The position numbers and the translations under genes are program-made. 64,000 nucleotides of DNA from an uncultured Sphingomonas sp. GTDB lineage: Bacteria > Pseudomonadota > Alphaproteobacteria > Sphingomonadales > Sphingomonadaceae. The DNA is taken from NCBI GenBank assembly GCA_963521395.1, contig CAUQTY010000005.1:115354-179353 (forward strand), written 5' to 3'. Positions 8,282 to 31,184 of this stretch are shown piece after piece. How positions within the stretch are numbered: the stretch's first letter is position 1; the number at the start of each line of letters is the position of its first letter. The notes beneath the pieces are model-generated. The model was not told the origin of the DNA and ran no database searches. It saw only the letters and a program-made list of their open reading frames with translations.

Positions 8282-8304
8282 TTTTCCGACTTTTGATCGG
8301 ATTT
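8282..8304. promoter_or_regulatory. Putative TetR operator
   Basis: TTTTCCGA-CTTTTGA-TCGGATTT. Confidence 0.65.
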
Positions 8305-8341
8305 GGTCGACATCGAATTAAAGCCGTGCGATAACTCGTGC

Positions 8342-10580: not shown

Positions 10581-10744
10581 GCGCTGGGCTGAGCCTCTTG
10601 ATTGCTGCTTCTAATCAGCCGCGGCTTGCGGCCGCGCCGCAGATGCAGGGTCGCCTCAGTCGAAACGAGGCGGAGCTCGCCAATGCTGGACTGGTCGAAC
10701 TCAGCGGCCAAGCTTTCGAGCGATGAAGAGGGAAACTTGTTCAT
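10577..10744 (-). CDS. 55-aa protein resembling the N-terminal oligomerisation segment of BCCP (below the ORF-track cutoff)
   Basis: My translation: MNKFPSSSLESLAAEFDQSSIGELRLVSTEATLHLRRGRKPRLIRSSNQEAQPSA*; its TGA overlaps the accC ATG (ATGA); resembles the start of the BCCP at 21995-22501 (FPDDLQLLAEQFLASGWTELRV). Confidence 0.65.
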   Translation of the reverse strand: MNKFPSSSLESLAAEFDQSSIGELRLVSTEATLHLRRGRKPRLIRSSNQEAQPSA

Positions 10745-13464: not shown

Positions 13465-14211
13465 TCATCCGGCGATCATTCCTCCGTCGACGACGTGCTC
13501 GGCACCCGAGACGAAGGACGCTTCATCGGAAGCAAGAAAAAGTACGAGATTGGCGACCTCCTGCGGCTGCGCCATTCGGCCCAGCGGAATCGCCTCGGCT
13601 GCGCCGCCGCCATTCTCGTCGGTGGCGGCGATCATCATCGGCGTAAGGATGTAGCCGGGGTGCACTGAGTTGCAGCGAATGCCCTGCCGGCCATATTGCG
13701 CGGCGATCAGCTTGCTCATTCCGCGTACCGCCCATTTGCTGGCGCAATAAGCGGCATTCGACGACTCTTTGGTGCCGAGCATGCCGGCGATCGACGAGAT
13801 GTTGATGATCGACCCACCGCCAGCCCGGATCATGGAGGGGATCACCGCCTTCATACCCAGGAACACGCCAGTCTGGTTGATGGCGCAAACGGCCTCGAAA
13901 TCTTCCTGGGAGAAGTCGAGCAGACCCTGAACCGGTCCGATCACACCGGCATTGTTGACCAGCACATTGACCTCGCCGAAGCGGTCAGTCGCCTGCTCGA
14001 GGACATCTTCCCAGTCGCTGGCCTTCGCGACGTCGTGCCGAGCGAAATGCGCGTCCGGGCCAAGCTCTTCCGCAATGTCGCGACCGCGCCGCTCGTTGAC
14101 GTCGGTGAGCACGACTTTGGCACCTTCGCGCACGAAGGTACGTGCGTGGGCCTCCCCCATACCCTGGGAAGCGCCCGTTACGACGGCAATCTTCCCAGAG
14201 AGACGGGGCAT
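13465..14211 (-). CDS. SDR NAD-dependent secondary alcohol dehydrogenase
   Basis: TGASQGMG; LVNNAG; YCASK; NSVHPG. Confidence 0.93.
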   Translation of the reverse strand: MPRLSGKIAVVTGASQGMGEAHARTFVREGAKVVLTDVNERRGRDIAEELGPDAHFARHDVAKASDWEDVLEQATDRFGEVNVLVNNAGVIGPVQGLLDFSQEDFEAVCAINQTGVFLGMKAVIPSMIRAGGGSIINISSIAGMLGTKESSNAAYCASKWAVRGMSKLIAAQYGRQGIRCNSVHPGYILTPMMIAATDENGGGAAEAIPLGRMAQPQEVANLVLFLASDEASFVSGAEHVVDGGMIAG

Positions 14212-14213
14212 GC

Positions 14214-15302
14214 TTAGGCAGCCTCGCTTTGCGCCGGTTGGCTGAGCCGGGGCGCAACCTCATTTGCGAGGAGGTCCATGCTGCGCTCCCAGCCGGCCGG
14301 ATCATCGATGTAATCGTGGCTGTAGATCAGCAGCGTTCCGAATGGACCGCCAAGATCGTCGAACCAGGCTTCCATCTTCTGCGTGACGGTGTCCGGAGAA
14401 CCGACGATCCAGACATGCTCCGCGAGATATTCGGCGTCTACGTCTGCGGGATCCACATTGGGGTCGTGCAGCAGCCCCTTGAGCACGCCGAACCGCTCGT
14501 ACGTTGGCTTAATATACTCCTTCCACGCGCGGCCGATGCCACCCTCGATCGCCAGCTTGCGGGCTTCAGCATCGGTGTCGGCTACGATGACGTCGCGAAC
14601 GACGCGGTGCATTGAGCGATCCGAAGCGCGGCCCGCATTTGTCATGTTTTCCTTGTAGGTCTGAAAATGACTGCGAAGGAACTCGTTGCCGGCATAGACC
14701 GACGCCGGAATGAAACCGTGCGTGCCGGCGAAGCCAATGGAAGGCGACGGGGCCGAGAGGCCAGTCATCGCCATCTGCATCTCGCCATTCCAGGGGCGCG
14801 TGTCACGAAGAGGCTTCTTGCCATCCTGTACGGGATAACCAGCGTTCCAGAACTCGCCCTGGTGCTCGAAGGGCTCGGCCCTCCAGACCTTCTGCATGAT
14901 GTCGATCGATTCGAGCATCATCGCATGGTTCTTCGACATGTCGGTGATGCCACGCACTGCCGCGTCCGTCGGGTAAGCGCCTGTCGCGACGCCCAGCATG
15001 TAGCGGCCTTCAAGGATCTGGCTGAGCCAGGCGGTTTGCAACGCCAGCGTGCCCGGGTGATGATAGGGCAGCAGGTGCGCCAGCGGTCCGAAGTGGATGC
15101 GGCTGGTTTGCGCCGCGGCGGCGGCAATCACCAGCTCCGGGCTGGGGATGCCCTCCCAGTTAAGCGTGCCATGCTCACCGACCCAATATTCCGAGAAACC
15201 GACCCGGTCGGCGACGACCGCCTGCTTCACCGCCCAGTCGAACACCTGCTTGGGGGTGCGCTCCGGGCGGACGAACGGGGTCTGGAACATGCCAACTTGC
15301 AT
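14214..15302 (-). CDS. LLM-family FMN-dependent monooxygenase, 2,5-diketocamphane monooxygenase-like type II Baeyer-Villiger monooxygenase
   Basis: GEHGTLNWEGIPSPEL and AHLLPYHHPGTLALQTAWLSQILEGRY match my recollection of P. putida 2,5-DKCMO (GEHSTLAWENIPCPEI; AHLLPYHNPATLAIQIGWLSQILEGRY); similar length. Confidence 0.85.
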   Translation of the reverse strand: MQVGMFQTPFVRPERTPKQVFDWAVKQAVVADRVGFSEYWVGEHGTLNWEGIPSPELVIAAAAAQTSRIHFGPLAHLLPYHHPGTLALQTAWLSQILEGRYMLGVATGAYPTDAAVRGITDMSKNHAMMLESIDIMQKVWRAEPFEHQGEFWNAGYPVQDGKKPLRDTRPWNGEMQMAMTGLSAPSPSIGFAGTHGFIPASVYAGNEFLRSHFQTYKENMTNAGRASDRSMHRVVRDVIVADTDAEARKLAIEGGIGRAWKEYIKPTYERFGVLKGLLHDPNVDPADVDAEYLAEHVWIVGSPDTVTQKMEAWFDDLGGPFGTLLIYSHDYIDDPAGWERSMDLLANEVAPRLSQPAQSEAA

Positions 15303-15338: not shown

Positions 15339-15728
15339 TCAGCCGTGGTCTTTCCATTCCACGAGGATGTCATTGTCGTCGAAGCGCATCACGCTGCAAA
15401 ACTTCAGGCGGAATTTCTCGCCAGCCGCGCCGAAACCGGGCAGATCGACGGCTGCGGTTCCGCCGTACCAGGCTTCGCGAACCACGATGTTGCCCGAGGT
15501 AGTGACCCGCTCCACCGGCTCGAACTGTCGATCGGGCACATAGCTGCTGGCAAAGCCGCGCAGTACTTCAAGAAGCGCATCTCGGCTGTTCAGCACGAAG
15601 TTGCGATTGAAGTGCGCGAAGTCGATATCCGGCGCGATCATCGATTCCAGAGCGTCGAAATCCTTGGCGTTGTAGGCCTGGATGAGCCGCTCGGCCGCTG
15701 CAGCAGGGTCAGCCACGAGCATAACCAT
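15339..15728 (-). CDS. NTF2/SnoaL-like protein
   Basis: AYNAKDFDALESMIAPDI...GEKFRLKFCSVMRFDDNDILVEWKDH; exact start uncertain. Confidence 0.8.
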   Translation of the reverse strand: MVMLVADPAAAAERLIQAYNAKDFDALESMIAPDIDFAHFNRNFVLNSRDALLEVLRGFASSYVPDRQFEPVERVTTSGNIVVREAWYGGTAAVDLPGFGAAGEKFRLKFCSVMRFDDNDILVEWKDHG

Positions 15729-16046: not shown

Positions 16047-16754
16047 GTGAGCAGAGTGGATATTGCAACGGGCACGCCGACCGCTCCGATGGTAAATACC
16101 GACGATCCGTTTGATGTTCTGCTGGCTGAGATTTTAGAGCGATCGTCGCGCGACAGCGGTCGCAAGCAGGTGCGCAGTCGGCGAACGGAGCAGCAGATCC
16201 TCAACGCTGCGCTGCGTGTCTTCGCGCGTGATGGAATCTCACGTTCCCGTATAGCCGATATCGCCGCCGAAGCGGGGATCTCGACTTCGACCCTGTACGA
16301 ATATTACGCCAGCAAGGAGGATCTCGCCTATGAGGTGCCGTCCTTCCATCTGGCGACATTCTTTGCGCAGTATCGCGACGCCGTGGTTCCACGATCGTCG
16401 GCGCGGGAACGGCTGATGCTCTATCTATCCATGTCGTCGGACTTCGCGCGCGAGCATGCCGACTGGGCGCGGCTACTCTACCTCGAGATCTGGCCGAGCG
16501 TTTTCGTGGGCACTACCGACGTCCGCCACAGCGTCGATGATTTCGCGCGCGTCGTCATCTTCCTGATCAAGCAGGGCGCCAAGGAAGGCCTCTGGAGCGA
16601 TCGGCACGATCCTTACCAAACGGCCTCGATCCTTCTTGGGGGCGTCAACCAGACCATTATCACCTGGCTGCTGTATCGCCGGCCGAAGAATTTGACCAAG
16701 GCCGGTACTGAGATAGCCGAACGAGTGCTCGCCATGATCGAGCGCGAGCGCTGA
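16047..16754 (+). CDS. TetR/AcrR family regulator
   Basis: ILNAALRVFARDG..IADIAAEAGISTSTLYEYYASKEDL HTH; start could be 16047 (GTG) or 16089 (ATG). Confidence 0.92.
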   Translation: MSRVDIATGTPTAPMVNTDDPFDVLLAEILERSSRDSGRKQVRSRRTEQQILNAALRVFARDGISRSRIADIAAEAGISTSTLYEYYASKEDLAYEVPSFHLATFFAQYRDAVVPRSSARERLMLYLSMSSDFAREHADWARLLYLEIWPSVFVGTTDVRHSVDDFARVVIFLIKQGAKEGLWSDRHDPYQTASILLGGVNQTIITWLLYRRPKNLTKAGTEIAERVLAMIERER

Positions 16755-16755: not shown

Positions 16756-17556
16756 TTATCGGTCCTGGAAGCGCGCTTCTCGCCCATCCAGGAACGCGGC
16801 GACGCCCTCCTCCGCATCCACGCTGCCGGTGAGTTCCGCGGACAATGCCTGGGCATCAAGGTAAGCCTCTGTCCAGCTGCGGCCTTCCAGTCCGACGCTC
16901 GCCCGCTTTCGGGCCCGCAAGGCCGGCAGACTTTGCACGGCGATTTCGCGAGCCAAGCCGATTGCGCGTGGCATGACCTCGGTGCGAGGCAGGACGTAGT
17001 TAAAGAACCCGGTGGGTGCGAGCTCGGCGCCGGTGAAGCGCCGTCCGGTGAACAGCATCTCCCTGGCCTTGGCCTCCGGCATGTTCAGCGTCCGGAATAT
17101 GCCCCCGCCTCCAGCGACCAAGCTGTAGCGGATCTCGGGGCAGGAGAAGTGTGCATCTTCGGCCGCGATCCGCATGTCGCACAGCGCCGCAAGGATGACG
17201 CCGATCCCAACCGCTGGAGCTGTGATGGCAGCGACCACGGGGCGGTCGAGGCGCTCGAACGCCGGCAGGATCGCGTTGATCCGGGCATAGCGCGCCTTGC
17301 GGGCGGCCTGATCGATGCCAACGAAGTCGTTCAGGTCCGCGCCCCCGCACCACGCCTTTGCCCCTTCCGGCACCGCAAGTATCACCACGCGGATCGTGAG
17401 GTCAGCCGCAACATGCTCCGTCAGGGCCTGCAGATCTTCGTAGACGGAATAAGAGACAGCATTCACCGGTGGCCGCCAGAAGGTGCAGATAGCGACGCCA
17501 TCGTCCTCGACATCCAGAGTGAACACGCCGAACGAGCGCACTCCGCAAGCCGTCAT
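16756..17556 (-). CDS. Enoyl-CoA hydratase/isomerase family protein
   Basis: RPPVNA; WCGGADL; AVGIG..LAALCD; CPEI. Confidence 0.9.
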   Translation of the reverse strand: MTACGVRSFGVFTLDVEDDGVAICTFWRPPVNAVSYSVYEDLQALTEHVAADLTIRVVILAVPEGAKAWCGGADLNDFVGIDQAARKARYARINAILPAFERLDRPVVAAITAPAVGIGVILAALCDMRIAAEDAHFSCPEIRYSLVAGGGGIFRTLNMPEAKAREMLFTGRRFTGAELAPTGFFNYVLPRTEVMPRAIGLAREIAVQSLPALRARKRASVGLEGRSWTEAYLDAQALSAELTGSVDAEEGVAAFLDGREARFQDR

Positions 17557-17566: not shown

Positions 17567-18802
17567 TCAAACGTCCCACACCAGATCGAAGGGCTTCACC
17601 GCGCCGACAATCCCATTGACATGTTCGATGTGCTCACCGGGCGCGAGCCTGAAGTCGGGGATGCGGGCGCACCATTCGCGAATCATCACCTGCAGCTCGG
17701 TGCGAGCGATAAAGGCCCCGGGACAGGTGTGATTGCCGCGGCCGAAAACTGAATGGATGCGGTTGCGGCGATCCAGATCGACGCTGGTCATCTCTTCGCC
17801 GAAGGTCGGATCGAGCGCCGATGCCGCCGTCGGCGCCATCACCATCTCGCCAGGCAGTAGCTGCACACCATCGACTTCGATCGCCTGCCGGACCTCGCGC
17901 GAGGACGACACCAGCGGAAAGCGACGGAGCAGCTCCCAAACGGCATCACCGATCCGATCCGGTTGGGCGGCCACCCGGTCGCGCAGCTCGGTGTCTTGAG
18001 CCAGGTAGGACATGGCGAAGGCCATGGCGTTCACCACCGTGTCGAGTCCGCCGACCAGGACCTGGATGCAGGTATCCGCCGCCTCGTCATCGCTGAGCGA
18101 GCGGCCTTCGACCTGGCCGTTGATGAGCTTGCTGATGAGATCAGTGCCCTGCCCGCCACGCCGCTGGGCGATAACCGGAGTGATATACTCCTTGAAGAGC
18201 TGCTTGACCTCCGGATAGCTGAGCGAGCCATCCGGCCGGGTGAACTGGTCCGCGAGATGCTTGAGCTTGGGGAGGTCGGCGATCGGTAGATCGACCAGTC
18301 CCATGAAGATCCTGACCGGCAGCTGCTCGGCGAAGTCATGCACGAAATTGCAGCGTCCGCGCGGGCGAAAGCCTTCGATCAGCTCGACCGTCAAGTCTGT
18401 GACCCGCTGTTCCAGCGCGCTTAGCGCCTTGGGTGACATGTTGTCGTTCAGAAGCTTACGGAATGGGCGGTGTTCCGGCGGGTCAAGCGAGAGGGGAATG
18501 AGCTTGTATGCTTCGCCCGCCGTGTCCTTGGGGACGAGCACGATGCGGCTCGAGAAGCGGTCGGATTCCGCGAGGACCTCATTCGAGAGGTCGGCAGAAA
18601 GAGCAATCCAGTGACCGCCATTGTGCGGTGTCCACATCAGCTTGTGCGGCGCGGAAGTCATGATCGACCGCCACTCATCGTGAAGATCCTGGCCGTCGGG
18701 GAGCGGGCGATAGATGTCGAAGTCCAGCACCCGGTCGGAGGGCACATTGGCGGGACGACTTGCCAGATGATCGGCCGGGATCTCGGTCAGGGCAACTTCC
18801 AC
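17567..18802 (-). CDS. Cytochrome P450, CYP101 family (CYP101J-like)
   Basis: WTPHNGGHW; AGEAYKLIPLSLDPPEH; VGGLDTV I-helix; ELLR; FGRGNHTCPG heme Cys; closely resembles recalled sphingomonad cineole-hydroxylating CYP101J enzymes. Confidence 0.92.
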   Translation of the reverse strand: MEVALTEIPADHLASRPANVPSDRVLDFDIYRPLPDGQDLHDEWRSIMTSAPHKLMWTPHNGGHWIALSADLSNEVLAESDRFSSRIVLVPKDTAGEAYKLIPLSLDPPEHRPFRKLLNDNMSPKALSALEQRVTDLTVELIEGFRPRGRCNFVHDFAEQLPVRIFMGLVDLPIADLPKLKHLADQFTRPDGSLSYPEVKQLFKEYITPVIAQRRGGQGTDLISKLINGQVEGRSLSDDEAADTCIQVLVGGLDTVVNAMAFAMSYLAQDTELRDRVAAQPDRIGDAVWELLRRFPLVSSSREVRQAIEVDGVQLLPGEMVMAPTAASALDPTFGEEMTSVDLDRRNRIHSVFGRGNHTCPGAFIARTELQVMIREWCARIPDFRLAPGEHIEHVNGIVGAVKPFDLVWDV

Positions 18803-18869
18803 GGGGCGACTCCTCCTACGCGAACCAAAGCGTCAACTCTTTGGTGACGAGCCTAACACACATCTGACT

Positions 18870-18970
18870 TCCGAAAAGACATTTTGTCGGTTTAGTAGCG
18901 CGGTTTGTCGCTGGACAGCCTAAGCAGACGAGTGCAGTCTCCTCACCAAACCCGAATTTTTGTCAGGAGT
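18870..18970. promoter_or_regulatory. Divergent P450/SDR promoter region with operator-like sites
   Basis: AAGA-CATTTTG-TCGGTTT (18876) and CCGA-ATTTTTG-TCAGGA (18952). Confidence 0.5.
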
Positions 18971-18976
18971 GAGAAG

Positions 18977-19726
18977 ATGGGTCGACTAAGTGGCAAGGTG
19001 GCGATCATCACTGGTGCGGCTCAGGGCATGGGCGAAGCCCATACTCGTGCCTTCGTGCGTGAAGGAGCCAAGGTGCTGATTACCGACGTCAACGCCGCCG
19101 CCTGCGAAGCACTGGCCAGCGAGCTTGGCGGGGCTGCCCGGGCGCAGGCACTCGATGTCACCGACGAGAATAGCTGGAATGCGGCAGTCGCCGCCGCTGA
19201 AGAAGCGTTCGGACCGGTCAACGCCCTTGTCAACAATGCAGGCATTCTCGGTCCTGGTGCCCAGGCCGTTGATCTGTCTCGGGCCGACTTCGACAAGGTC
19301 TGCGCGGTCAATCAGACGGCTGTCTTCCTCGGCATCAAGGCGGTGATCCCGTCAATGCTGAAGGCAGGCGGCGGGTCGATCGTCAACGTGTCGTCCATCT
19401 CCGGCATCGTCGCGATCTACGGCACGCCAAATGTCGCTTATGCCGCCAGCAAGTTCGCCGTGCGCGGCATCACCAAGCAGGTTGCGATCGAATATGGCGG
19501 GCACAACATCCGCTGCAATTCGGTCCACCCGGGCTACATACGCACCCCGATGATGACGGCAGCGCTCGACGACGAGCAGATCAAGATTGCGAGCGGTTCC
19601 GTGCCGATCAAGCGGGTCGGCGAGCCCGAAGACGTATCCAACCTGTGCGTGTTCCTGGCCTCGGACGAGTCTGGCTTCGTCACCGGTGCCGAGCACATCA
19701 TCGATGGCGGCCTGACCGCCCTCTAG
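18977..19726 (+). CDS. SDR NAD-dependent alcohol dehydrogenase, paralog of 13465-14211
   Basis: AGGAG RBS then MGRLSGKVAIITGAAQGMG; YAASK; NSVHPG. Confidence 0.93.
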   Translation: MGRLSGKVAIITGAAQGMGEAHTRAFVREGAKVLITDVNAAACEALASELGGAARAQALDVTDENSWNAAVAAAEEAFGPVNALVNNAGILGPGAQAVDLSRADFDKVCAVNQTAVFLGIKAVIPSMLKAGGGSIVNVSSISGIVAIYGTPNVAYAASKFAVRGITKQVAIEYGGHNIRCNSVHPGYIRTPMMTAALDDEQIKIASGSVPIKRVGEPEDVSNLCVFLASDESGFVTGAEHIIDGGLTAL

Positions 19727-20550
19727 CCGTCCTTGTACTGGGCCGGACGGCCGTCGAGGAAGGCGCGAACCCCTTCCTCGGCGTCCTCTCCGGCAACCAG
19801 CATCCGCGAGCGAGACTGGGCATCCAGGTAGACATCCATCCAGCTGCGCTGCTGGAGGCTTGCACCGGTCAGCTTACGCGCCCGAATGGCCGGCAGGCTC
19901 TTTCCCGCGATGCGACGCGCGATGTCATAAGCGCGCGGCAGCACTTGGTCCCGTGCCACGACGTAATTGAAGAAGCCGGTCGGCTCCAGCTCGCGGGCAG
20001 TGAAGGCCTGACCGGTGAAGGCCATCTCCCGCACCTTGGCGAGCGGCATGTTGACGTGGATGAAGAGTCCGCCGCCACCGGCCACCAGGCCATAGTCGAT
20101 CTCGGGGCACGCAAACTTGGCGTCATTGGCGGCGACACGCATGTCGCAGAGGGCCGCTAGGATCATTCCCACGCCGACAGCGGCACCTTCAATCGCCGCG
20201 ATCACAGGACGATCGAGCTGGTAGAAGCGCGGTAACTGCGCGTTGATAAATTCGTAGCGTTCCTTGCGGCGCTCCGGCGTCATGCCGACGAAGTCGTTGA
20301 GGTCGGCGCCGCCGCACCAGGCACGCGCGCCTGACAGCGCGGTCAGCACCACCACGCGAATGTCGTCGCTGGCCTCAATGTGATCAACAAGGTCGCCAAG
20401 GTTCTGGTAAACCTCGACGGAGATGGCGTTTACTGGCGGTCGATCGAAGATGACCGTCGCAATACCGCTCTCGTCAACTCCGAGCTTGAAGGCACCAATC
20501 TCTTGCTCGCGGACCGGCGGCGCCGCACCCCTAGCGACGGAGTACGGCAT
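19723..20550 (-). CDS. Enoyl-CoA hydratase/isomerase family protein, paralog of 16756-17556
   Basis: DRPPVNA; WCGGADLNDFVG; LAALCDMR; CPEIDYGL. Confidence 0.9.
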   Translation of the reverse strand: MPYSVARGAAPPVREQEIGAFKLGVDESGIATVIFDRPPVNAISVEVYQNLGDLVDHIEASDDIRVVVLTALSGARAWCGGADLNDFVGMTPERRKERYEFINAQLPRFYQLDRPVIAAIEGAAVGVGMILAALCDMRVAANDAKFACPEIDYGLVAGGGGLFIHVNMPLAKVREMAFTGQAFTARELEPTGFFNYVVARDQVLPRAYDIARRIAGKSLPAIRARKLTGASLQQRSWMDVYLDAQSRSRMLVAGEDAEEGVRAFLDGRPAQYKDG

Positions 20551-21988
20551 TCAGTTTGCTCGAGCGGACTTCGACCACCGGCAGCTTGGTGAGCTGCATC
20601 AGCTTGCGAACCTGATCGAGTTCGGGCGAGCTGAGCAGCGGATAGTCGCGCTTAACGGGGCCCGCCGCGCGCATCTTCTCGATATCGGCTTCGGGCAGGA
20701 AGGCGCGATAGATGAGCTCGTCCTCGTCCTCCGTGCCGTACTTCTTCTTAAGCTCGTCTAGACTAGGTTGTTCTGGCGGATTTGCGAGGACTTCGGCCGC
20801 GCGCGGCGCCGCCATAATGCGGTCCAGTACCTCGGGGTTCACCGGCGCCACCGTCTCGCCATAGAAGCCGGCAGAATATTGGATCACCTCGTCGGGCACG
20901 GTGCCGTAGCGTTTGCCGGTGACCACGTTCAGCACCGCCTGGATCCCGACGAGCTGGCTGAACGGCGTTGCCATGCCGGGGTAGCCCAAGTCACGGCGAA
21001 CGGCGGCGACTTCCTCAAGTACCTCCGGCAGCTTGTCCATCATCTTATGCATGGCTAGCTGGGCCTTGAACGTGCCCATCATCCCGCCGGGGATCTGATG
21101 CTGGATCGAGAACTCGTCATATTCGGCATACTGGTCCACCAAGAAGCCGGCCGCCTTTCCAACCGCCCGGAAGTGATCGGCGACGGGCTGAAACAGGCTT
21201 TCATCCAGGCTGTGCGTATGCCCTCGAAGCTGAATGTTGCGAGCCATGATCTCGGTCGAGGGGACCGAAGGGCCGTTTGCCATCGGCCGGCTTGCGGTGT
21301 GGATCACGCTGACTCCAGCGTCAATCGCATCGAGATAGGCCTTGGCCGACATGCCCAGGAGATTGTTGGAATGAAATTCCAGCGCCTTACCGTTTGCCGC
21401 CTGTACCAGCGCCGGAACCAGCTGCTGAATCCGCTCCTTCTCAAGCACGCCGGCGGTATCGTAGAGGAGGATGCTGTCGATGTGCGGACTCTCCGCCAGC
21501 CGGCGGGCATTAGCGACGAAGAATTCATCGGTATGCACTGGCGACAAGGCAAACATGATCGCACCGGCGACCTGCGCGCCATTCGCCTCTTTGGCGACCC
21601 GGGCCAAGCGCAGCATATTATCGATGCCGAATAGCACGTCGTAGATCCAGAAGGATCGGAGACCATGAGCGCACAGTCGGCGAACCCAGAGATCCATCAA
21701 TGCTGGCGGAGTGATACCGAAGGTGACGTTCGCATTGGCACGAAGACCGGCACGCAGCGGCGTGTTGGGCATGGAGGCGACCAAGAGGTCTAGTCCCTCC
21801 CAGTAGTTCTCCTGACAGTAGCGAGTCAGCACATCCATCATGCCGCCGCCGGTGAGATCGATGGTTTGAAAACCGGTCTTGTCGATCAATGGCGAGACTG
21901 GCAGCGCCATGCCGGCCTGCATGCGCAGGCCCCACAAGCTCTGCTGCCCGTCACGCATGGTCTCATCAAGAAATTCGATGTGAGCCAT
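20531..21988 (-). CDS. Pyruvate carboxylase B / oxaloacetate decarboxylase alpha-like carboxyltransferase, divergent, no biotinyl domain
   Basis: DETMRDGQQSL; HQIPGGM; VRRDLGYPGMATPFSQLVG; metal-site motifs altered (LYDTAG, FHSN). Confidence 0.85.
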   Translation of the reverse strand: MAHIEFLDETMRDGQQSLWGLRMQAGMALPVSPLIDKTGFQTIDLTGGGMMDVLTRYCQENYWEGLDLLVASMPNTPLRAGLRANANVTFGITPPALMDLWVRRLCAHGLRSFWIYDVLFGIDNMLRLARVAKEANGAQVAGAIMFALSPVHTDEFFVANARRLAESPHIDSILLYDTAGVLEKERIQQLVPALVQAANGKALEFHSNNLLGMSAKAYLDAIDAGVSVIHTASRPMANGPSVPSTEIMARNIQLRGHTHSLDESLFQPVADHFRAVGKAAGFLVDQYAEYDEFSIQHQIPGGMMGTFKAQLAMHKMMDKLPEVLEEVAAVRRDLGYPGMATPFSQLVGIQAVLNVVTGKRYGTVPDEVIQYSAGFYGETVAPVNPEVLDRIMAAPRAAEVLANPPEQPSLDELKKKYGTEDEDELIYRAFLPEADIEKMRAAGPVKRDYPLLSSPELDQVRKLMQLTKLPVVEVRSSKLNAVLRR

Positions 21989-21994
21989 GCCTAC

Positions 21995-22501
21995 TCAAGC
22001 TCCCGGTTGGATGTAGTAGAGAATGCGGCCGGCCTCGACTAGTTCGGAGTCAGCGGCGCAGATCTGCACGATTTTGCCAGCCTGCCCTGCCTTTACCGAC
22101 GTGAACAGCTTCATGACCTCGAGCAGGCAGACTTCCGTTTCCTGCTGCACGACCGAACCCACTTCGACGAAAGGCGCCGCGCCGGGCTTCGGCGATCGAT
22201 AGAAGGTACCGAGATTGGGCGCGGTGATCGGCACCCAGCTTGGGTCGATGCTGTCTGGCGTCGCTGGGGCCTCAGCCGGGGCTGTTGCTGCGACTGCGTT
22301 CGTTGAGGCTTCGATGGACGCTGGTGTAGCAATTGGGGCTGTCGGAGCTGCTACTCCGGCACTGCCCAGTCCCGCGCTGTTCGGATCGAGCGAGAAGAGA
22401 ATTTCGGTGTCACCGGTCTTGACCCTGAGTTCGGTCCAGCCGCTGGCGAGGAATTGCTCGGCAAGCAATTGCAGGTCGTCGGGGAAACGCTCGCTGCTCA
22501 T
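21995..22501 (-). CDS. accB: Biotin carboxyl carrier protein
   Basis: Ala/Pro linker; APNLGTFYRSPKPGAAPFVEVG; LEVMKLF biotinylation lysine. Confidence 0.9.
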   Translation of the reverse strand: MSSERFPDDLQLLAEQFLASGWTELRVKTGDTEILFSLDPNSAGLGSAGVAAPTAPIATPASIEASTNAVAATAPAEAPATPDSIDPSWVPITAPNLGTFYRSPKPGAAPFVEVGSVVQQETEVCLLEVMKLFTSVKAGQAGKIVQICAADSELVEAGRILYYIQPGA

Positions 22502-23964
22502 GCGGCCTGCTCCGCGGCGCGGGTGAGCTGGTCACGGACGGTCCTGCGGAGGATCTTGTTGGCACCGCTCTTCGGCAATTCCGGCCAAACAAGAATCTCC
22601 TTGGGCCGCTTCACGCTCGAAAGGTTCTGGCGCGCAAAATCCATGATAGCGGTTGTGTCGAGGGTCGCCGGGCCGCCGACTACGGCGACCACCCGGTCCC
22701 CCCATTTTTCATCGGGGAGGCCGACGACGGCGACCTCCTGTACCCCCGGAAAGCCCATCAGCACGTCCTCGATTTCGCGCGGGTAGATGTTGTAGCCACC
22801 GCTAACGAGCATGTCGTTCTTGCGGTCCACGATGTAGAAGAAGCCGTCTTCGTCCATCGTGCCGATGTCGCCAGTGTGCAGCCAGCCGCCGCGGAACGCC
22901 TCTGCGGTGGCTTCGGGCTTGTCCCAGTAATACGCCATCAACTGAGGTCCACGGACGACGATCTCACCTCGCTCACCTGGCCCGAGTGGACGATCATCTT
23001 CGTCGAAGATCGCGACTTCGACGACCGAGAAGGGACGACCGCACGATCCTACCCGGTCATGGTCCTGCGGGCGCAAGTAGGTGATTGCCATCGGGCTTTC
23101 CGCTTGGCCGTAGCATTGCGCGAACACCCGCCCGAACCGCTCTTCCGCCCGCTGCATGAGGGACGGCGAGATGGAAGAAGCACCATAAGCGACGATCTGG
23201 AAGTAGGTCTCCGTATCGATCGACGGATCATCCAGCAGCATTGCGATCATGGTTGGAACCAGGAAGCTGTACGATGCACGGGTCTCGTTTGCGAGACGGA
23301 GGAAGCCGCCCGTGTCGAACTTGGTCATGATGACAGAGTGCACGCCGCGGATCAGCGAGGGCAGAAAGAAGGCGCCGCCTGCATGAGCGATTGGCGCACC
23401 GTGGAGGAAGATCTCGCCCTCTCTCAGTTCGGGAATTAGGTCCGCCAAAAAGACGTTGGTTTCGACCAAGTCAGTGCGGGTGGTGAGCGTAACCGCCTTG
23501 GCGTTGCCCGTAGTGCCGCCCGTAAAGCCAAGCCGAAGCGGCGCGTCGAGGTCCCGATCTACCACGCACGGCTTCTGCTCACCCGTGGCGATCATCTCGA
23601 GCAGCTCGGGAAGCAGTATTTGCAGCTCCGCATCGATGCCCTTAACCCCGTCGTGAATAACGCAACGGCAGCCGGAGTAGGCAATCTTGTAGCGATGGCT
23701 GTCGAGCGTCTCCTTGGGATTGAGCTGCACCCGCACCAGCCCGGCCTTGAAGATCGCGTAGTAAGCGATGAGGCAATCGATCGAGTTTGGGAGCAGAACG
23801 CCTACCCGGTCACCGGGACGTAGACCCTTGGTGATGAGCGCATTGCCAAGCCGGTCCGTCGCCTGGTCGAAGTCATGGAAGCTGAGGGTCCGGTCGCCTT
23901 CGGTTAGGCAAGGCTTGTCCTTGTAGTGAAGCGCGGCGCGGCGGATGATGGAGCCAATCTGCAT
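22498..23964 (-). CDS. Acyl-CoA synthetase (AMP-forming)
   Basis: FTGGTTGNAK; YGQAE; GWLHTGD; DRKNDMLVSGGYNIYPREIE; ANKILRR. Confidence 0.92.
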   Translation of the reverse strand: MQIGSIIRRAALHYKDKPCLTEGDRTLSFHDFDQATDRLGNALITKGLRPGDRVGVLLPNSIDCLIAYYAIFKAGLVRVQLNPKETLDSHRYKIAYSGCRCVIHDGVKGIDAELQILLPELLEMIATGEQKPCVVDRDLDAPLRLGFTGGTTGNAKAVTLTTRTDLVETNVFLADLIPELREGEIFLHGAPIAHAGGAFFLPSLIRGVHSVIMTKFDTGGFLRLANETRASYSFLVPTMIAMLLDDPSIDTETYFQIVAYGASSISPSLMQRAEERFGRVFAQCYGQAESPMAITYLRPQDHDRVGSCGRPFSVVEVAIFDEDDRPLGPGERGEIVVRGPQLMAYYWDKPEATAEAFRGGWLHTGDIGTMDEDGFFYIVDRKNDMLVSGGYNIYPREIEDVLMGFPGVQEVAVVGLPDEKWGDRVVAVVGGPATLDTTAIMDFARQNLSSVKRPKEILVWPELPKSGANKILRRTVRDQLTRAAEQAA

Positions 23965-23976
23965 CGTCGTTCCTAG

Positions 23977-25086
23977 CTAAGCCGCGTCGCGACACTGCGC
24001 GGTGCCACCACTCGATCGAAACGTCTCGGAAACTACCTGCTCGCGGTGGTACACGGAGTCGCCGAACTGATGTTCGAACAGCTTGGTCCGGCGAAGGTAG
24101 CGATGGATGCCCAGTTCCCACGTGAAGCCCATGCCGCCATGTATCTGCACAGCTTCGTTGCACACGGACCTGGCGACATCTCCGCAATAGGCCTTGGCCA
24201 TGGAAGCGGCGCGCCGATCGCGACTGTCGCCTTCGCCGATCGCCCAGAACGCGTAATAAGCTGCCGACCGGCCCGCTTCCACCGCGACCGCCATGTCGGC
24301 GCAACGATGCTTGATCGCCTGGAACGCGCCGATCGGCTGGCCGAACTGGATTCGGGTAGACGCATATTCGACGCTGGCCGACAGCATACGGGCGGCAATG
24401 CCGATCGTCATGCCCGCCGTGACGGTAGCGCCGGCCTCCAGCGTGCGCGCCGCCGCCGATCCAAGCTGCAGCCGTTCCCCAGGTGCCCCGGTAAAGGCCA
24501 CCGATGCGAGTTCCGCGGCGGGATCGATGCTGCGTTCGGAAGTCGCAGCGACACCGCCCGCTTTCGCATCGACCAGCCAGCAGGCCGTCTCGCCGGCGTA
24601 AGTGCCAAGCACCAGGAAGGCGTCAGCCTTAGTCCCGCCAGCCACAAGCAGCTTGCGCCCGTCCAGCATTCCACCCGTGCTGGTCATCTTGAGCGAAGCG
24701 GGTTCATAGTCGGATCCAGCCTCGAAACTGGCGATGGCAATGCGAGCCTCGCCGGCAGCGATCCGCGGCAGCCACGTCTCCTTCAGCGCCGCCGATCCAT
24801 GCTGCAGCAGGACGTCGGTTGCGATGAGCGTCGAAGCGATCAGTGGCGGCGCTAACCCTGCCCCGAGTGCTTCAATGGCAAGCGCCAAGTCGACCAAACT
24901 CAAACCGACTCCGCCATGTTCTTCTGGCACGAGCAAAGCGAACAGCCCGAGTTCCGCGACAGCGGCCCACGCTTCGTCATTACCTTCGGTGTTGAGGTCG
25001 GGAACGGTCAGGCTTGCCACTCCGCCGAGCACGGAAGCCACGGTGTCGCCCAGACTGTGCTGGTCCTCGTCGAACGCGAAGTTCAT
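23977..25086 (-). CDS. Acyl-CoA dehydrogenase, probable non-catalytic subunit of a heteromeric ACAD
   Basis: Start MNFAFDEDQ (ATGA-coupled); RIQFGQPIGAFQAIKHR; QIHGGMGFTWE; degenerate N-terminal FAD motifs. Confidence 0.88.
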   Translation of the reverse strand: MNFAFDEDQHSLGDTVASVLGGVASLTVPDLNTEGNDEAWAAVAELGLFALLVPEEHGGVGLSLVDLALAIEALGAGLAPPLIASTLIATDVLLQHGSAALKETWLPRIAAGEARIAIASFEAGSDYEPASLKMTSTGGMLDGRKLLVAGGTKADAFLVLGTYAGETACWLVDAKAGGVAATSERSIDPAAELASVAFTGAPGERLQLGSAAARTLEAGATVTAGMTIGIAARMLSASVEYASTRIQFGQPIGAFQAIKHRCADMAVAVEAGRSAAYYAFWAIGEGDSRDRRAASMAKAYCGDVARSVCNEAVQIHGGMGFTWELGIHRYLRRTKLFEHQFGDSVYHREQVVSETFRSSGGTAQCRDAA

Positions 25087-26285
25087 TTCACCCCCGATCG
25101 CGGCAGGCCGAGCATCCGTTCGCCAATGATGTTGCGCTGGATCTCGGATGATCCCGAGTAAATAGTGAAGGCCTTGGATTGCAGATAACTGAGCTGAAAT
25201 CGCCCATCCGCAACGCTGTCCGGATCTCCGGCCTCGAGCGGAGCGGTCGGGCCTATCGCATCCATGGCCGCTTCGTACATACGCTGCGCGGCGTGACTCC
25301 AATAAAGCTTGATGACGGAAGACTCCGCTCCTGGCTTCTCGCCATTAAGCAGGCGGCTGAAGCTCCGCAGTGAGTTCAGGCGCATGACCTCGACTTCGAT
25401 GATCGATTGGCCGACCTTTTGACGCACGTCGGGATGCTCGATTGCCTTGCGATCGCCGCGCTCCAACTCGCTTAAGCCAGCCACCAGCTTGTCGAGCTCT
25501 TGTTTGAAGCGGATCTGCCGCCCGAGACCGTCTTCCGGGCCGCGCTCATAGGCCAGCGTGGTCATCGCAATGCGCCAGCCGTCGTTGATGTCGCCGACTA
25601 CATTCTCGACCGGAACATCGACGTTGTCGAAGAAAGTCTCGTTGAACTCGCTCTCACCGCTGATCTGGCGCAATGGGCGGATCGAGATTCCCGGCGACTT
25701 CATGTCAATAAGAAGGAAGCTCAAGCCTTTGTGCTTGAGCGCGTCCGGGTCGGTCCTGACCAGCGCGAAGCACCAGTCGCTGTATTGGGCGTAGCTGGTC
25801 CAGACCTTCTGGCCATTGACGATGAACTTGTCGCCTTGGCGATCCGCCCGCGTGCGGACGGAGGCGAGGTCCGAACCCGCATTGGGCTCTGAGAAGCCCT
25901 GGCACCAGACCTCGTCGCTGCTGATGATCTTGGGGAGGAACCGCTTCTTCTGCTCTTCGGTGCCGTGTACGAGAAGGGTAGTCCCGACTAGGTTGTGACC
26001 GATGATGTTCAGGCCCTCAGGTGCACGCGCTCGCGCCATTTCCTCGGCAAAGATAGCACGTTCGACGAGGGTTGCGCCTCGGCCGCCATATTCAACTGGC
26101 CAGTTGATCCCGCTCCACCCACCGGCGTAAAGCTTCCGGTCCCAGGCGAGCCGGAACATCGCCCGTTCGTCTTCGTGCTCCGGCTCGAAGACATTCTCGC
26201 CCCAACCTGCAGGCAGAGCGGTGCTGAGCCAGTTTCGCAGATCGTTTCGAAATGCGTCTTCCGCTTGGGAGTAGCTGAAGTCCAT
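25083..26285 (-). CDS. Acyl-CoA dehydrogenase, probable catalytic subunit of a heteromeric ACAD
   Basis: WCQGFSEPNAGSDLAS; NGQKVWTS; TLAYER; TIYSGSSEIQRNII. Confidence 0.92.
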   Translation of the reverse strand: MDFSYSQAEDAFRNDLRNWLSTALPAGWGENVFEPEHEDERAMFRLAWDRKLYAGGWSGINWPVEYGGRGATLVERAIFAEEMARARAPEGLNIIGHNLVGTTLLVHGTEEQKKRFLPKIISSDEVWCQGFSEPNAGSDLASVRTRADRQGDKFIVNGQKVWTSYAQYSDWCFALVRTDPDALKHKGLSFLLIDMKSPGISIRPLRQISGESEFNETFFDNVDVPVENVVGDINDGWRIAMTTLAYERGPEDGLGRQIRFKQELDKLVAGLSELERGDRKAIEHPDVRQKVGQSIIEVEVMRLNSLRSFSRLLNGEKPGAESSVIKLYWSHAAQRMYEAAMDAIGPTAPLEAGDPDSVADGRFQLSYLQSKAFTIYSGSSEIQRNIIGERMLGLPRSGVK

Positions 26286-27094
26286 CAGCGGCTCGCTGCA
26301 GCAGCTGCCGCTGCCGCGAAATCGGGGGCGCGCTTTTCGCGGAATGCATTGACGCCCTCCTCATACTCCGGCGTCAGGTAGGCGATCGTCTGAGCGTAGG
26401 ACTCGTAATCCAGCATCTGGTCGAGCGTGACCGAGCCGGCCCGGTTGAGCAGGGTCTTGGTCATTGCGGTCGCAGTCGGCGATCCGGCGGCGATCGCGCG
26501 CGCCATTTTCCTGGCTTCCTCAAGCAGCTGGTCGTGTGGAACGACCTTATTGGCGATGCCGATCGCCAACGCCTCGTCCGCCGCGACCTTGCGCGCAGTG
26601 AAGCATAGCTCCTTCGCCATGTTGATCCCCACGACGCGGGCAAGGAACCACAGGCCGCCAAGGTCGGGGACTAGCGCCACCTTGGCAAAAGCCTGGACGA
26701 AGCTGGCTTGCTCGCTGGCGATGATGAAGTCGCAGGCGAGCGCGAGGTTCATGCCGGCCCCGGCCGCCGGGCCGTTCACCGCCGCGATTACCGGCTTTTC
26801 GAGTTGAAACAACGGATGTAGCACATCCCGCAGGATCCAGCGGTGACGATCCCGCCGCTCAAGCGGGGTCATGTCGTCGCGGCGGGCCTTGAGGTCCGCG
26901 CCCGCGCAGAAGCCCCTTCCCCCGCCGGTTAGTATCGCGCAACCGACGTCGGTGCGACCGGCGAGATCACGAATGATCGCCGACAACTCGTGATAAAGGT
27001 CGTCGGTGGTGGCGTTGAGCGCATCGGGCCGGTTGAGCGTGATCAGCGCGACGCGGTCTTCGACTTCGAACAGGACATTGCCTTGGGCGCTCAT
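26285..27094 (-). CDS. Crotonase-family enzyme, PaaG-like (Asp rather than Glu catalytic residue)
   Basis: Start MSAQGNVLF (ATGA overlap); FCAGADL; AAGAGMNLALACD; ALVPDLGG. Confidence 0.88.
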   Translation of the reverse strand: MSAQGNVLFEVEDRVALITLNRPDALNATTDDLYHELSAIIRDLAGRTDVGCAILTGGGRGFCAGADLKARRDDMTPLERRDRHRWILRDVLHPLFQLEKPVIAAVNGPAAGAGMNLALACDFIIASEQASFVQAFAKVALVPDLGGLWFLARVVGINMAKELCFTARKVAADEALAIGIANKVVPHDQLLEEARKMARAIAAGSPTATAMTKTLLNRAGSVTLDQMLDYESYAQTIAYLTPEYEEGVNAFREKRAPDFAAAAAAAASR

Positions 27095-27918
27095 TCTGCC
27101 GCCTCTCGATAAGGGGTGTGGGCAAGATCGTCGGCGGTCGACGTCGGCCGATCCCACCATTGCTCCGGCATCCGCATCGGGATGCGGAAATCATGCGCAG
27201 GCACGACGATGTCGGCGCTGTCGAACACCCGGCGCATCGATTGCAGCTGCGTCCGCTCGCTCTCGCTGCGGATCGGTCCCGTCATGAAATCATCGCCAAG
27301 GTAGCGCTTGGGCTTGTCGGTCGCCCGGGGGTCGGTCGGGAACCAGTAGCGGTAATGATCGCCGAGGTCGGACACGAGGGCGACCTTGCCGCGCTCCGTC
27401 TGCACGATCGGCACGTGCATTCCGGGTGTGTGCCCGGGCGTCTTCACCACCTCGATCCCATCGAACAACGTGAAATCGCCATCGACCAGGCGGATCTGCC
27501 TCCCTCGCTTGCGCTCGTTCAGTTCGGCGACGGTCTCGCGCCAGTAGAAGATCCGCTGGCTCGGCACCGGGTCCATGGCGTGAAACAGCTCGTCACGCTG
27601 TACGATGACCTGCGCGTCAGGAAACAGCTCGAGGTTGCCGGCATGGTCGAAGTGGAGGTGCGTCGGCAGCACCACATCGATGTCGGCGGGTGTCAGCCCC
27701 TCGCTGGCCAGACCCCGGATCAGGCTGTCATGCCCGCCACCGACGCCTTCGACCTTCAGCCGGGCGTTTACCACGTCCATCGCCGCCATGCCGCTGTCGA
27801 CAAGGATGGCCTTGCTGTCGCTGCGCACCAGCCAGCAATGGATCGGATCGCGCATCATTCCGCCTTCGTGAGGCAGGAACAGCTCGCCGACGCGAAGGCT
27901 GGTGACCGTCCAATTCAT
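27091..27918 (-). CDS. MBL-fold hydrolase, AHL-lactonase-like; candidate pathway lactonase
   Basis: THLHFDHAGN; TPGHTPGMH; SD; PAHD metal ligands. Confidence 0.88.
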   Translation of the reverse strand: MNWTVTSLRVGELFLPHEGGMMRDPIHCWLVRSDSKAILVDSGMAAMDVVNARLKVEGVGGGHDSLIRGLASEGLTPADIDVVLPTHLHFDHAGNLELFPDAQVIVQRDELFHAMDPVPSQRIFYWRETVAELNERKRGRQIRLVDGDFTLFDGIEVVKTPGHTPGMHVPIVQTERGKVALVSDLGDHYRYWFPTDPRATDKPKRYLGDDFMTGPIRSESERTQLQSMRRVFDSADIVVPAHDFRIPMRMPEQWWDRPTSTADDLAHTPYREAAE

Positions 27919-28841
27919 TCGTCGATGACCTCGAACCGCTCGATATCGGCAAGCGAACCGGTTCGGTTGTCACCCCAGATCGCGCGCACCCGGGTGCCCG
28001 GCTTGATGCGCACCTTGGCTTCTTCGACGCTGTCGATCTCGATCATGTGGATGAGGCGGGTCGACGCGCCGTCGAGCACGATCTCTGCGTAGACATAGGG
28101 CGGCGGTCGGGTCTGGCCGACGAACTCGAGGTTGATGATCGAGCAGCCACGGATCGTGCCGGTGTCCTTGCACGCTTTCCACGTGCCGGTGCGCTTGTGA
28201 CTGATGTCGTCGATCTCGCGCGGCGGAAGCAGTGCGGCGTCACCCTCACTGGTGCGAACGCCCATGATGACGCGGTTGGTTTTGATCTCGTCGAACAAGC
28301 GTCCGTAATAGGGGCCGTAAGCATGCTCATACTGGAGCCGGATGTCGTAAGGCACGACCTCCACCGGCTTGTCGTGCTCCGGAAGGTCACCGATCGATCC
28401 GACGTCCGCATCCGCCTTCACGGCAAAGCCGCGGATGGCGAGGATCGATCCTTCGACACCCTCGTCCCATTCGGCCTGCACGCGGGTGCCGACATCAAGC
28501 TTGTCGATATCGGCGTCAACAAGTCGATGAACAAAGGTGTTGGCACAGCCGTCCAGCCGGATGAGACCAAGCATCTGCCCGTCCACACGGGTGAAGCCGC
28601 GCAGCTCGCCGGTGCTGGGCGCAACAACCAGTACCGGATCGGATTCACCATTGGTCGGGGAGAAATCCTGCGCCGGTGCGATCACCGTACCATCGGCGAA
28701 GCGCGAGCCGACAATATGGCCCTTGCCAATCTCTGCAAGGAACACGCCGGCTGCCCGCCCGGGCGTCAGCGTGTAGGACATGGCGATCTCGCTATGGAAC
28801 GCCTGAAGTTCGATCGATTGGGTTTCCGGTGCCGCCAGCAT
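27915..28841 (-). CDS. Tandem DUF35 (OB-fold) protein, Rv3521-like, without zinc-ribbon cysteines
   Basis: Two repeats of Y....G....RF..EI....I.G.R ... G.LRG ... I.LDG....H ... GTRV.A.W. Confidence 0.8.
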   Translation of the reverse strand: MLAAPETQSIELQAFHSEIAMSYTLTPGRAAGVFLAEIGKGHIVGSRFADGTVIAPAQDFSPTNGESDPVLVVAPSTGELRGFTRVDGQMLGLIRLDGCANTFVHRLVDADIDKLDVGTRVQAEWDEGVEGSILAIRGFAVKADADVGSIGDLPEHDKPVEVVPYDIRLQYEHAYGPYYGRLFDEIKTNRVIMGVRTSEGDAALLPPREIDDISHKRTGTWKACKDTGTIRGCSIINLEFVGQTRPPPYVYAEIVLDGASTRLIHMIEIDSVEEAKVRIKPGTRVRAIWGDNRTGSLADIERFEVIDE

Positions 28842-28851: not shown

Positions 28852-30009
28852 CTATGCGCTCAGGACTGCGCAGCCGCGCAGATTGGCCCAGCCGCCGCCG
28901 GATTGCACCAGCGCCAGCTTGGCGTCCTTGATCTGGTTGTTCTCGGACTTGCCCATCACCTGGGTGGCGCCCTCGATCAGGCGAATAAGGCCAACCGCCC
29001 CGATCGGATTGGCGCCGAGACATCCGCCCGATGGATTTACCGGAATGTCGCCGTCAAGCTGCGTCGCGCCGCTCTCGATCAATTCGGCCGCCTGCCCTGC
29101 CGGGCATAATCCGAGGCTCTCGTAGTAGTTGAGCTCGAAGCAGGTGTAGGGTTCCTGCAGCTCCACCACGTCGAACTGCCGCCGCGGGTTGGTGATACCA
29201 GCCGCGCGGTAAACCTGCCGTGCCGCGATGGCGAGCGGCTCGGACTGGAGCAGCGAGCGTTCGGGTGCATTGTCGGCCTCGCAGCAATAAGCGATGCCCT
29301 GGATCCAGGCCGGCCGGGTCGTCGACTTGGCCGCTGCCTTTTCCGACGAAAGGACGATGGCTGCGGCGCCGTCGGAGATCGGCGGTACGTCCAGCAGCTT
29401 GATCGGCCAGGCAAGCGGCTTGGAAGCCATGACTTCCTCGACCGTCACCGGCTTCTTCACATGCGCATAGGGATTGGCCATGGCGTTGGCGCGGTTCTTC
29501 ACCGCGACCAGCGCAGCCGCTTCCTCCGTATGCCCGAGCACGTCCATGCGCGCCCGCCAATATGCAGCGGAGAACCCCATGATCCCGACGGCGAACTCGC
29601 GACCCCAGAATGGGTCGTAGAGGGTCGAAATGCTATATTGGAGCTGCCCTTCCGACAGTTTGTCGTATGCTACCACCAAGGTGCGTTCGGCAAAGCCGCC
29701 AGCGACCTGGTAGTAGCCCGCAAGCGCACCCGCGAAGCCCGCGCCACCGCCGCTGGTCACACGGACTACGGGCTTCAGTTGTGCGCCGATCGCATCGGCG
29801 ACCCACTTCTCCGGCTGATTGACCGCTGCGAACAGCACCGGGCCGGTCGCCACGACCACGCTATCGATGTCCTCCATGGTGAGGTTCGCATCAGCGAGCG
29901 CCCGATCCACCGCTTCGCGCACCAGGCCTGCCTGGCTGACATCCGTCCGCCGCCGCGCATGATGCGTCTGGCCGACACCGACGATTCCTACGTGCCGTCC
30001 CATCTTCAA
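28852..30009 (-). CDS. SCP-x-type thiolase-fold protein, Ltp3-like retro-aldolase subunit
   Basis: GVGQTHH..DVSQAGLVREAVDRAL resembles mycobacterial Ltp3; no catalytic Cys; GANPIGAVG in place of GHP. Confidence 0.8.
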   Translation of the reverse strand: MKMGRHVGIVGVGQTHHARRRTDVSQAGLVREAVDRALADANLTMEDIDSVVVATGPVLFAAVNQPEKWVADAIGAQLKPVVRVTSGGGAGFAGALAGYYQVAGGFAERTLVVAYDKLSEGQLQYSISTLYDPFWGREFAVGIMGFSAAYWRARMDVLGHTEEAAALVAVKNRANAMANPYAHVKKPVTVEEVMASKPLAWPIKLLDVPPISDGAAAIVLSSEKAAAKSTTRPAWIQGIAYCCEADNAPERSLLQSEPLAIAARQVYRAAGITNPRRQFDVVELQEPYTCFELNYYESLGLCPAGQAAELIESGATQLDGDIPVNPSGGCLGANPIGAVGLIRLIEGATQVMGKSENNQIKDAKLALVQSGGGWANLRGCAVLSA

Positions 30010-31109: not shown

Positions 31110-31184
31110 GGCGATGTTCCTTCCTCCCGGGCAGCGATGGCCCTCCACTATGAAATGTATCGCTCGCCGATCGATGTCAAAGCT

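Follow-up and report, generated by a model that had tools for sequence, protein, structure and literature searches.

What would a stand-alone carboxyltransferase of the pyruvate carboxylase type, with two of its metal ligands replaced, do in a gene cluster that resembles a terpenoid catabolic pathway? The question is raised by the gene at 20531..21988 of a 64,000-nucleotide stretch (the window) of contig CAUQTY010000005.1, assembled from an uncultured Sphingomonas sp. Our answer, which we consider probable, is that its product (CT) serves to carboxylate, at the expense of ATP and with biotin as carrier, an unphosphorylated keto-acid derived from a cineole-type ring cleavage, to a 3-oxoadipate-like product. 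The genes on which this answer leans most directly are the following:

20531..21988, minus strand: TIM-barrel CT of 485 aa, member of a Tyr176/Asn208 clade and of its kinase-free G48-G49 subclade
21995..22501, minus strand: biotin carboxyl carrier protein (BCCP) with an EVMKL motif, adjoining the CT
22498..23964, minus strand: AMP-forming CoA ligase, putative activator of the 3-oxo acid product, alternating with PcaIJ in relatives
23977..25086, minus strand: acyl-CoA dehydrogenase (ACAD) small subunit; best NCBIfam match PimD, under its cut-off
25083..26285, minus strand: ACAD large subunit; best NCBIfam match PimC, under its cut-off
9225..10580, minus strand: biotin carboxylase (BC) gene accC, whose orthologues adjoin the CT in many relatives

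CT, BCCP, ligase and ACAD pair share one strand with gaps of +6, -4 and +12 bp, an arrangement that appears operon-like; the co-transcription stated in the original prediction for this locus is plausible on that spacing. A promoter and terminator scan of 18500-31500 gave no excess over shuffled sequences (3 vs. 2.7; 6 vs. 8.4). The accC gene does lie some 10 kb away, as had been claimed, its end being ~9.95 kb from the CT. The same prediction had seen no CT of the crotonase type, the PF01039 kind used by the acyl-CoA carboxylases AtuC/F, LiuB/D and AccA/D, and none is found among the 58 window proteins scanned, with four matches elsewhere in the genome.

Domain searches assign the CT to PYC_OADA, with a weak HMGL-like match, and its closest solved relatives are OadA (2nx9), PycB (5ks8) and transcarboxylase 5S. 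An AlphaFold model, which holds no metal (pLDDT 87.9), fits these three with Z 41-43 and 27-32% structural identity, the best match being 2nx9 (Z 42.9, root-mean-square deviation 2.6, 428 aligned residues). Domain search, model and structural matches agree on the TIM-barrel fold shared by pyruvate carboxylase (PC) and OadA. Unlike the PC/OadA group, the CT has no fused biotinyl domain.

The metal of PC/OadA is bound by Asp, a carbamylated Lys and a His-x-His (HxH) pair. In the CT, the relevant motifs read RDGQQS (12-17), LYDTAG (175-180), FHSN (205-208) and HQIPGGM (297-303). Alignment to 2nx9, 5ks8, 5S and annotated pyc/oadA proteins places Y176 at the Lys of the KD motif and N208 at the second His of HxH, as had been read from LYDTAG and FHSN; D13 and H206 are retained, so two of the four positions that we take to be metal ligands in PC are altered and the CT does not carry the PC/OadA ligand set. 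RDGQQS and HQIPGGM are both present, as the original prediction had it, although the former is not fully canonical, since annotated PC/OadA rows read RD(A/G)HQS. Arg12, Asp13, Gln16, Arg83, His206 and Thr341 are common to the CT and annotated PC/OadA proteins. Four of them (Arg12, Gln16, Arg83 and Thr341) presumably match substrate-binding and proton-shuttling residues of PC and, because they are kept in the pocket, enolisation and proton transfer are likely to run as in PC, with a metal site that is weakened or re-ligated.

The substitutions are not peculiar to this genome. Of 8000 candidates scored in a protein search with the CT, 2913 matched, and the top 120 were each at least 80% identical; cultured carriers include Novosphingobium colocasiae KCTC 32255, Sphingobium xenophagum and Altericroceibacterium indicum. 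For residue counts, identical rows were collapsed and matches spanning fewer than 380 residues were dropped. Tyr176 is present in 33/33 distinct CTs at ≥72% identity and in 55/55 at 50-72% (88/88 at ≥50%), and Asn208 in 33/33 and 52/55, respectively. The four CTs at 40-50% identity have Glu (three) or Lys (one) at position 176 and HxH in all cases, and below 40% identity Lys176 with His208, i.e., Lys with HxH, is found in 36 of 36. Since both residues are near-invariant at ≥50% identity, Tyr176/Asn208 is a family trait and not a product of chance or decay.

A tree of 33 selected rows (IQ-TREE, unrooted) sets PC/OadA apart from all other rows by a 100/100 branch; Tyr and Glu rows form one clade (100/99), and rows chosen by acv gene order form a clade of their own (100/100) with the CT outside it. 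A grouping of the Tyr rows with PC/OadA fails the approximately unbiased test (p-AU 0.00035). On these branches and this test, the CT appears to act like a ketone carboxylase yet to belong to neither the PC/OadA nor the Acv/Hpe family. An order of change at the site from Lys to Glu to Tyr, followed by His to Asn, would fit the unrooted tree. Several other forms were met in this survey. Rhodococcus plasmids (L083, L084 and L128) encode CTs in which Glu takes the place of Lys and HxH is intact; L083 and L084 also have the four-gene kinase module described below, a gene pair for an OB-fold protein and a thiolase, and a gene resembling those of tyrosine phosphatases. A betaproteobacterial metagenome-assembled genome (L030, 6810-11452) has three tandem CT paralogues, all with Tyr and HxH and basal in the Tyr clade. 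L086, L131 and L132 represent a further Lys/HxH clade of CT-BCCP-BC sets without a kinase, followed in L132 by BioY, a PcaIJ-like pair and a PcaF-like thiolase.

Could the CT then simply be an anaplerotic carboxylase of pyruvate, or another 2-oxo acid, with an unusual metal site? G48-G49, D52 and R83 equal the pyruvate pocket of PC/OadA, which also weighs against our own reading, and the genome has no match to another PC-type domain, to phosphoenolpyruvate (PEP) carboxylase or to pyruvate phosphate dikinase (PPDK). However, neither PEP carboxylase nor the CT is present in three congeners (99% complete), while G089 carries the two together, and anaplerosis therefore does not account for the CT. 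Its distribution follows a catabolic P450 instead, and every NCBIfam PycB/OadA score is under the cut-off (best 322 bits vs. a cut-off of 402). Together with the rejected grouping in the tree, these observations rule out an ordinary PycB/OadA identity, and homologues with the same substitutions form a separate clade rather than proving to be ordinary PycB/OadA; we regard pyruvate carboxylation as highly improbable. As a separate observation, neither this genome (G000) nor its congeners G096, G187 and G257 have a match to PEP carboxylase, PPDK or canonical pyruvate carboxylase, and a PPDK-like query matches 284 of the 301 genomes of the family.

Three-part biotin enzymes that carboxylate ketones are already described as a kind. 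HpeCBA of Rhodococcus rhodochrous GD02, studied in vitro as a purified three-part biotin enzyme, is reported to carboxylate phospho-acetophenones and not free phenols, converting one ATP to ADP (PMC9618137), and acetyl-group carboxylation by AcvCDE of Sphingobium sp. SYK-6 is reported with genetic support (bioRxiv 2022.04.28.489975). Because these two precede it, the carboxylase cannot be called undescribed in kind, as the original prediction did. What does hold of that claim is that the CT groups with ketone carboxylases, which is consistent with a non-pyruvate ketone being turned into a 3-oxo acid. According to the bioRxiv report, AcvCDE and XccABC are homologues of HpeCBA and AcvE is 26% identical to PycB; the two sources differ as to the Hpe subunit that they name as the CT. 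XccABC of Aromatoleum aromaticum EbN1 is itself a predicted three-part biotin ketone carboxylase.

Our comparison used orthologues chosen by acv gene order (L129 and many sphingomonad loci) as stand-ins for the characterised proteins. Like the Hpe/Acv/Xcc systems, the locus encodes BC, BCCP and a PycB-like CT as separate subunits, set in a catabolic cluster where CoA activation follows; the CTs are in neighbouring clades and share the predicted conversion of a methyl ketone to a 3-oxo acid. The acv-order locus L129 consists of kinase alpha and beta, BCCP, BC, CT, HAD phosphatase and ligase, whereas our locus lies in a terpene cluster and has neither kinase nor HAD phosphatase. Neither of the two Acv kinase subunits nor the phosphatase has a tblastn match at E<1e-6 in the genome, which is 100% complete by markers. 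Acv-order CTs, 33-37% identical to ours, carry Lys with HxH and T83/R86/W90, in contrast to Tyr/Asn and R83. Residues, tree and the missing kinase and phosphatase rule out direct orthology to AcvE, HpeA or XccA. In L082, L087 and other sphingomonad loci we noticed Acv-like BCCP-BC-CT-HAD operons with a UPF0261/Tm-1-like ATP-binding protein in the place of the AcvAB kinase, where it is possibly an alternative kinase. What is uncharacterised is the Tyr/Asn clade and its kinase-free terpene branch: the literature searched (titles and the starts of abstracts, with few subscription journals) held no account of that clade, of a levulinate carboxylase or of a carboxylase in cineole catabolism.

If relatives depend on a phosphorylated substrate, why should this CT not? 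Counting neighbour genes by tblastn, we found that the Tyr clade splits into a kinase-linked and a kinase-free, terpene-associated branch (53 and 33 loci). Among the 53 loci at 50-72% identity, 32-36 have in an operon with the CT the genes of a four-gene module, of which one is PPDK-like, one encodes a PEP-utiliser domain and two are unknown; none of the four was found within ~10 kb at the 33 loci at ≥72% identity, 28 of which have at least 7 kb of upstream sequence. No match to the module was found in the genome of the window either, and a search for a kinase module acting in trans returned only the genome's sole PEP-utiliser match, an 805-aa PtsP-like frame. Positions 48-49 are Gly-Gly in all 33 kinase-free CTs at ≥72% identity, and Ser48 is found in 54 of 55 CTs of the kinase-linked group (one gap) and in 33 of 36 below 40% identity; the basal, kinase-free CT of L050 (71.8% identity) still has Ser-Thr. 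Because Gly-Gly follows the absence of the kinase, we infer for the Ser pair a role in binding the phosphate of the substrate, and for the kinase-free branch a substrate without one. The kinase-linked sister branch, at 57-72% identity, has the same Y176/N208 site and often the same ligase, yet differs in the PPDK-derived module and S48-S49; the P450, monooxygenase, ACAD pair and aldolase set, all in our cluster, occur at 0 of its 53 loci. The ESM Atlas gave no usable match for the 517-aa protein of the kinase module.

Which way would such a complex run? CT, adjacent BCCP and distant accC product are likely to form a three-part ATP- and biotin-dependent carboxylase. The top structural matches of the CT, OadA and 5S, work in the decarboxylating or transcarboxylating direction, and at this locus the BC gene stands apart from the CT, so one may ask whether CO2 is instead taken off a 3-oxo acid. 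However, a dedicated BC orthologue accompanies the CT across relatives, usually adjacent to it, and the window holds no detected membrane beta subunit or 12S crotonase-type CT; this direction is to us the least probable of the alternatives considered. Two further genes flank accC:

8866..9222, minus strand: BCCP-like small protein without the biotin-accepting Lys, kept after accC in relatives
10577..10744, minus strand: remnant of 55 codons that resembles the N-terminal part of another BCCP, located before accC

Frames similar to the Lys-less one come after accC in L001, L003 and L032, and in L028, L085, L113 and L114 they are close to the CT; the Atlas features of the protein point to biotin-lipoyl clusters (0.94). 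Possibly a structural or regulatory subunit, it is reminiscent of the BADC proteins of plants. A full second BCCP gene is present in the clusters of nine close relatives (L001, L002, L003, L005, L032, L033, L034, L040 and L042).

The substrate is suggested by the company that the CT keeps. The cluster (4762-38568) contains a complete P450 system, with candidates for the steps up to a ring-opened product:

17567..18802, minus strand: cytochrome P450, ~61% identical to CYP101J2 (hand count 244/402)
38254..38568, plus strand: [2Fe-2S] ferredoxin, read from its Cys motif in translation, completing the P450 electron chain
7000..8277, plus strand: ferredoxin reductase
18905..19726, plus strand: short-chain dehydrogenase (SDR), candidate hydroxy-terpenoid dehydrogenase
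13465..14211, minus strand: a further SDR
14214..15302, minus strand: luciferase-like monooxygenase near 3,6-diketocamphane monooxygenase (E 1.6e-105)
8303..8869, plus strand: flavin reductase, partner for the luciferase-like monooxygenase
27091..27918, minus strand: metallo-beta-lactamase-fold hydrolase, candidate lactonase
31314..32354, plus strand: amidohydrolase-2 protein, candidate lactonase; only PDB match 4dlf
10791..13361, minus strand: TonB-dependent receptor

CYP101J2 is the nearest solved P450 by a wide margin (558 vs. 375 bits). P450s with >55% identity to a member are placed in the same subfamily, and ~61% puts this one in CYP101J. CYP101J2 is reported to hydroxylate 1,8-cineole next to C1 (PMC5598857). 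The upper cineole pathway, as outlined for Rhodococcus sp. C1, Citrobacter braakii and Sphingobium yanoikuyae B2 (CYP101J2), runs, as would ours, through a P450, a dehydrogenase, a Baeyer-Villiger enzyme and lactone opening to a methyl-keto acid, given as 3-(1-hydroxy-1-methylethyl)-6-oxoheptanoic acid (PMC8398027, PMC4097962). For the steps after ring cleavage, the review passages on cineole in the same sources offer only that they are "probably" beta-oxidation and name no carboxylase.

Co-occurrence follows the same line. Among the 301 family genomes sampled, the CT at ≥79% identity is found in eight; the P450 at ≥54% (54-63%) is found in the same eight and in none other (next best 48%), which holds also where P450 and CT are far apart, and the monooxygenase at ≥63% is found in seven of the eight and in no other genome.

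Downstream of the carboxylation, the following genes could take part:

4762..6818, plus strand: enoyl-CoA hydratase and 3-hydroxyacyl-CoA dehydrogenase pair
26285..27160, minus strand: enoyl-CoA hydratase
27915..28841, minus strand: ChsH2/DUF35 OB-fold protein
28852..30009, minus strand: thiolase-fold protein without the catalytic Cys, candidate retro-aldolase subunit
30006..31148, minus strand: thiolase-fold "lipid-transfer protein" partner (PRK07937, under cut-off)
32351..36870, plus strand: second CoA ligase, alpha/beta hydrolase, thiolase and SDR
36870..38215, plus strand: ScoAB-type CoA-transferase, duplicate of a copy on contig C1

In three of the eight CT genomes (that of the window, G175 and G245) there is an orthologue of the adjacent ligase and no PcaI-type gene; in the other five (G039, G042, G082, G089 and G141) PcaI-type genes are present and the ligase orthologue is absent, so that none has both. 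The mutual exclusion leads us to infer that ligase and PcaIJ are interchangeable activators of a 3-oxoadipate-like product. The relatives' transferase is 74-76% identical to subunit A of annotated pcaF/pcaD clusters and adjoins PaaF- and PaaH-like genes (under cut-off); the PcaI-type pair lies inside the cluster in three of the five genomes. ScoAB, originally proposed to handle the 3-oxo acid, is a weak candidate for that role, because the genome has another scoAB (C1, 657472-659341), with 92-94% identity at the protein level, and relatives use the ligase or the PcaIJ-type pair.

Another idea, close to the original prediction, is that acetone set free by the retro-aldolase is the substrate of the CT, giving acetoacetate for ScoAB and thiolase. 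In its favour are the ScoAB duplicate in the cluster and the lack of a match to a multi-subunit acetone carboxylase in the genome, where one frame of 1187 aa is the sole hydantoinase-family match. Against it, the cluster transferases of relatives are of the PcaIJ and not the ScoAB type and alternate with the ligase, and Arg83, invariant in the clade, is at a position that we take to bind the substrate carboxylate in PC. We judge acetone a very unlikely substrate.

The pathway that we envisage, carboxylation of a keto-acid from a cineole-type ring cleavage, would begin with hydroxylation of a 1,8-cineole-type bicyclic monoterpenoid by the CYP101J-type P450 and oxidation of the hydroxy-terpenoid to a ketone by the SDR. 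The diketocamphane-monooxygenase-like enzyme would then make a lactone that opens to the methyl ketone 3-(1-hydroxy-1-methylethyl)-6-oxoheptanoate. The CT complex would add CO2 to the terminal methyl of a keto-acid to give a 3-oxo-dicarboxylate, which the adjacent ligase (PcaIJ in relatives) would activate for a thiolase cut yielding acetyl-CoA. The branch would be lost, probably in the form of acetone, through the action of the ACAD pair, the hydratases and the Cys-less thiolase/DUF35 aldolase. Levulinate, a later fragment, is a tentative candidate for the carboxylation substrate and would give 3-oxoadipate directly. The C10 keto-acid itself, a somewhat more doubtful candidate, would pass through a branched 3-oxo-suberate and a branched adipyl-CoA to the ACAD, hydratase and aldolase steps. 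Both routes would use the gene set and are not separable from the present evidence. Stated most fully, and only as a conjecture, the enzyme may be a levulinate carboxylase that is independent of a kinase, spends one ATP, has a metal-poor or metal-free pocket, possibly includes the Lys-less BCCP-like protein as a fourth subunit, and closes the lower aerobic 1,8-cineole pathway by CO2 fixation.

Several points weigh against this pathway. The eight CT genomes belong to five genera and are kin, so their co-occurrences are not independent, and the P450 is within 10 kb of the CT at only 12 of the 33 loci of the kinase-free subclade. The substrate of CYP101J2 need not hold for a P450 at ~61% identity, nor across a co-occurring set at 54-63%. 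PcaIJ is common among sphingomonads and is on a different contig than the CT in G039 and G141. The characterised relatives of the complex act on aryl ketones, and HpeCBA requires a phosphorylated one.

The terpene could also be one other than cineole. Under the same chemistry, a camphor/fenchone-type compound, a norisoprenoid or a larger terpenoid acid would supply a different ketone: the nearest solved relative of the monooxygenase is a camphor-pathway enzyme, some relatives have paralogous monooxygenases, and the cluster keeps a TonB receptor that is not obviously needed for a volatile monoterpene. The margin by which a cineole hydroxylase is the nearest solved P450 speaks for cineole, and the camphor route, as described in the available part of PMC4097962, uses an additional CoA-ester monooxygenase, with no methyl-ketone step named there. 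We consider a different terpenoid unlikely, if less so than acetone or pyruvate.

The reaction proposed here supplies a defined, testable substrate for a widespread group of biotin carboxylases in which half of a metal site regarded as essential in PC is gone, and it suggests missing lower steps of bacterial eucalyptol catabolism. If true, a carboxylase that accepts an unmodified aliphatic methyl ketone and spends one ATP on it would be without precedent in the family. Were the substrate levulinate, a sugar-derived bulk platform chemical would be linked by CO2 fixation to 3-oxoadipate, a nylon precursor.

The remaining genes of the cluster are the following:

15339..15728, minus strand: SnoaL-like protein
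16047..16754, plus strand: TetR regulator
16756..17556, minus strand: crotonase-family paralogue
19723..20550, minus strand: crotonase-family protein directly after the CT

For the last of these, considered for the role of 6-oxocamphor hydrolase, that enzyme was not among 25 PDB matches at E<=1e-22. Outside the cluster, the window holds a CBASS-like anti-phage system at 53823-58007:

53823-54530: Cap15-domain protein
55010-56749: E2/ThiF protein, Cap2-like
56742-58007: DncV-like nucleotidyltransferase

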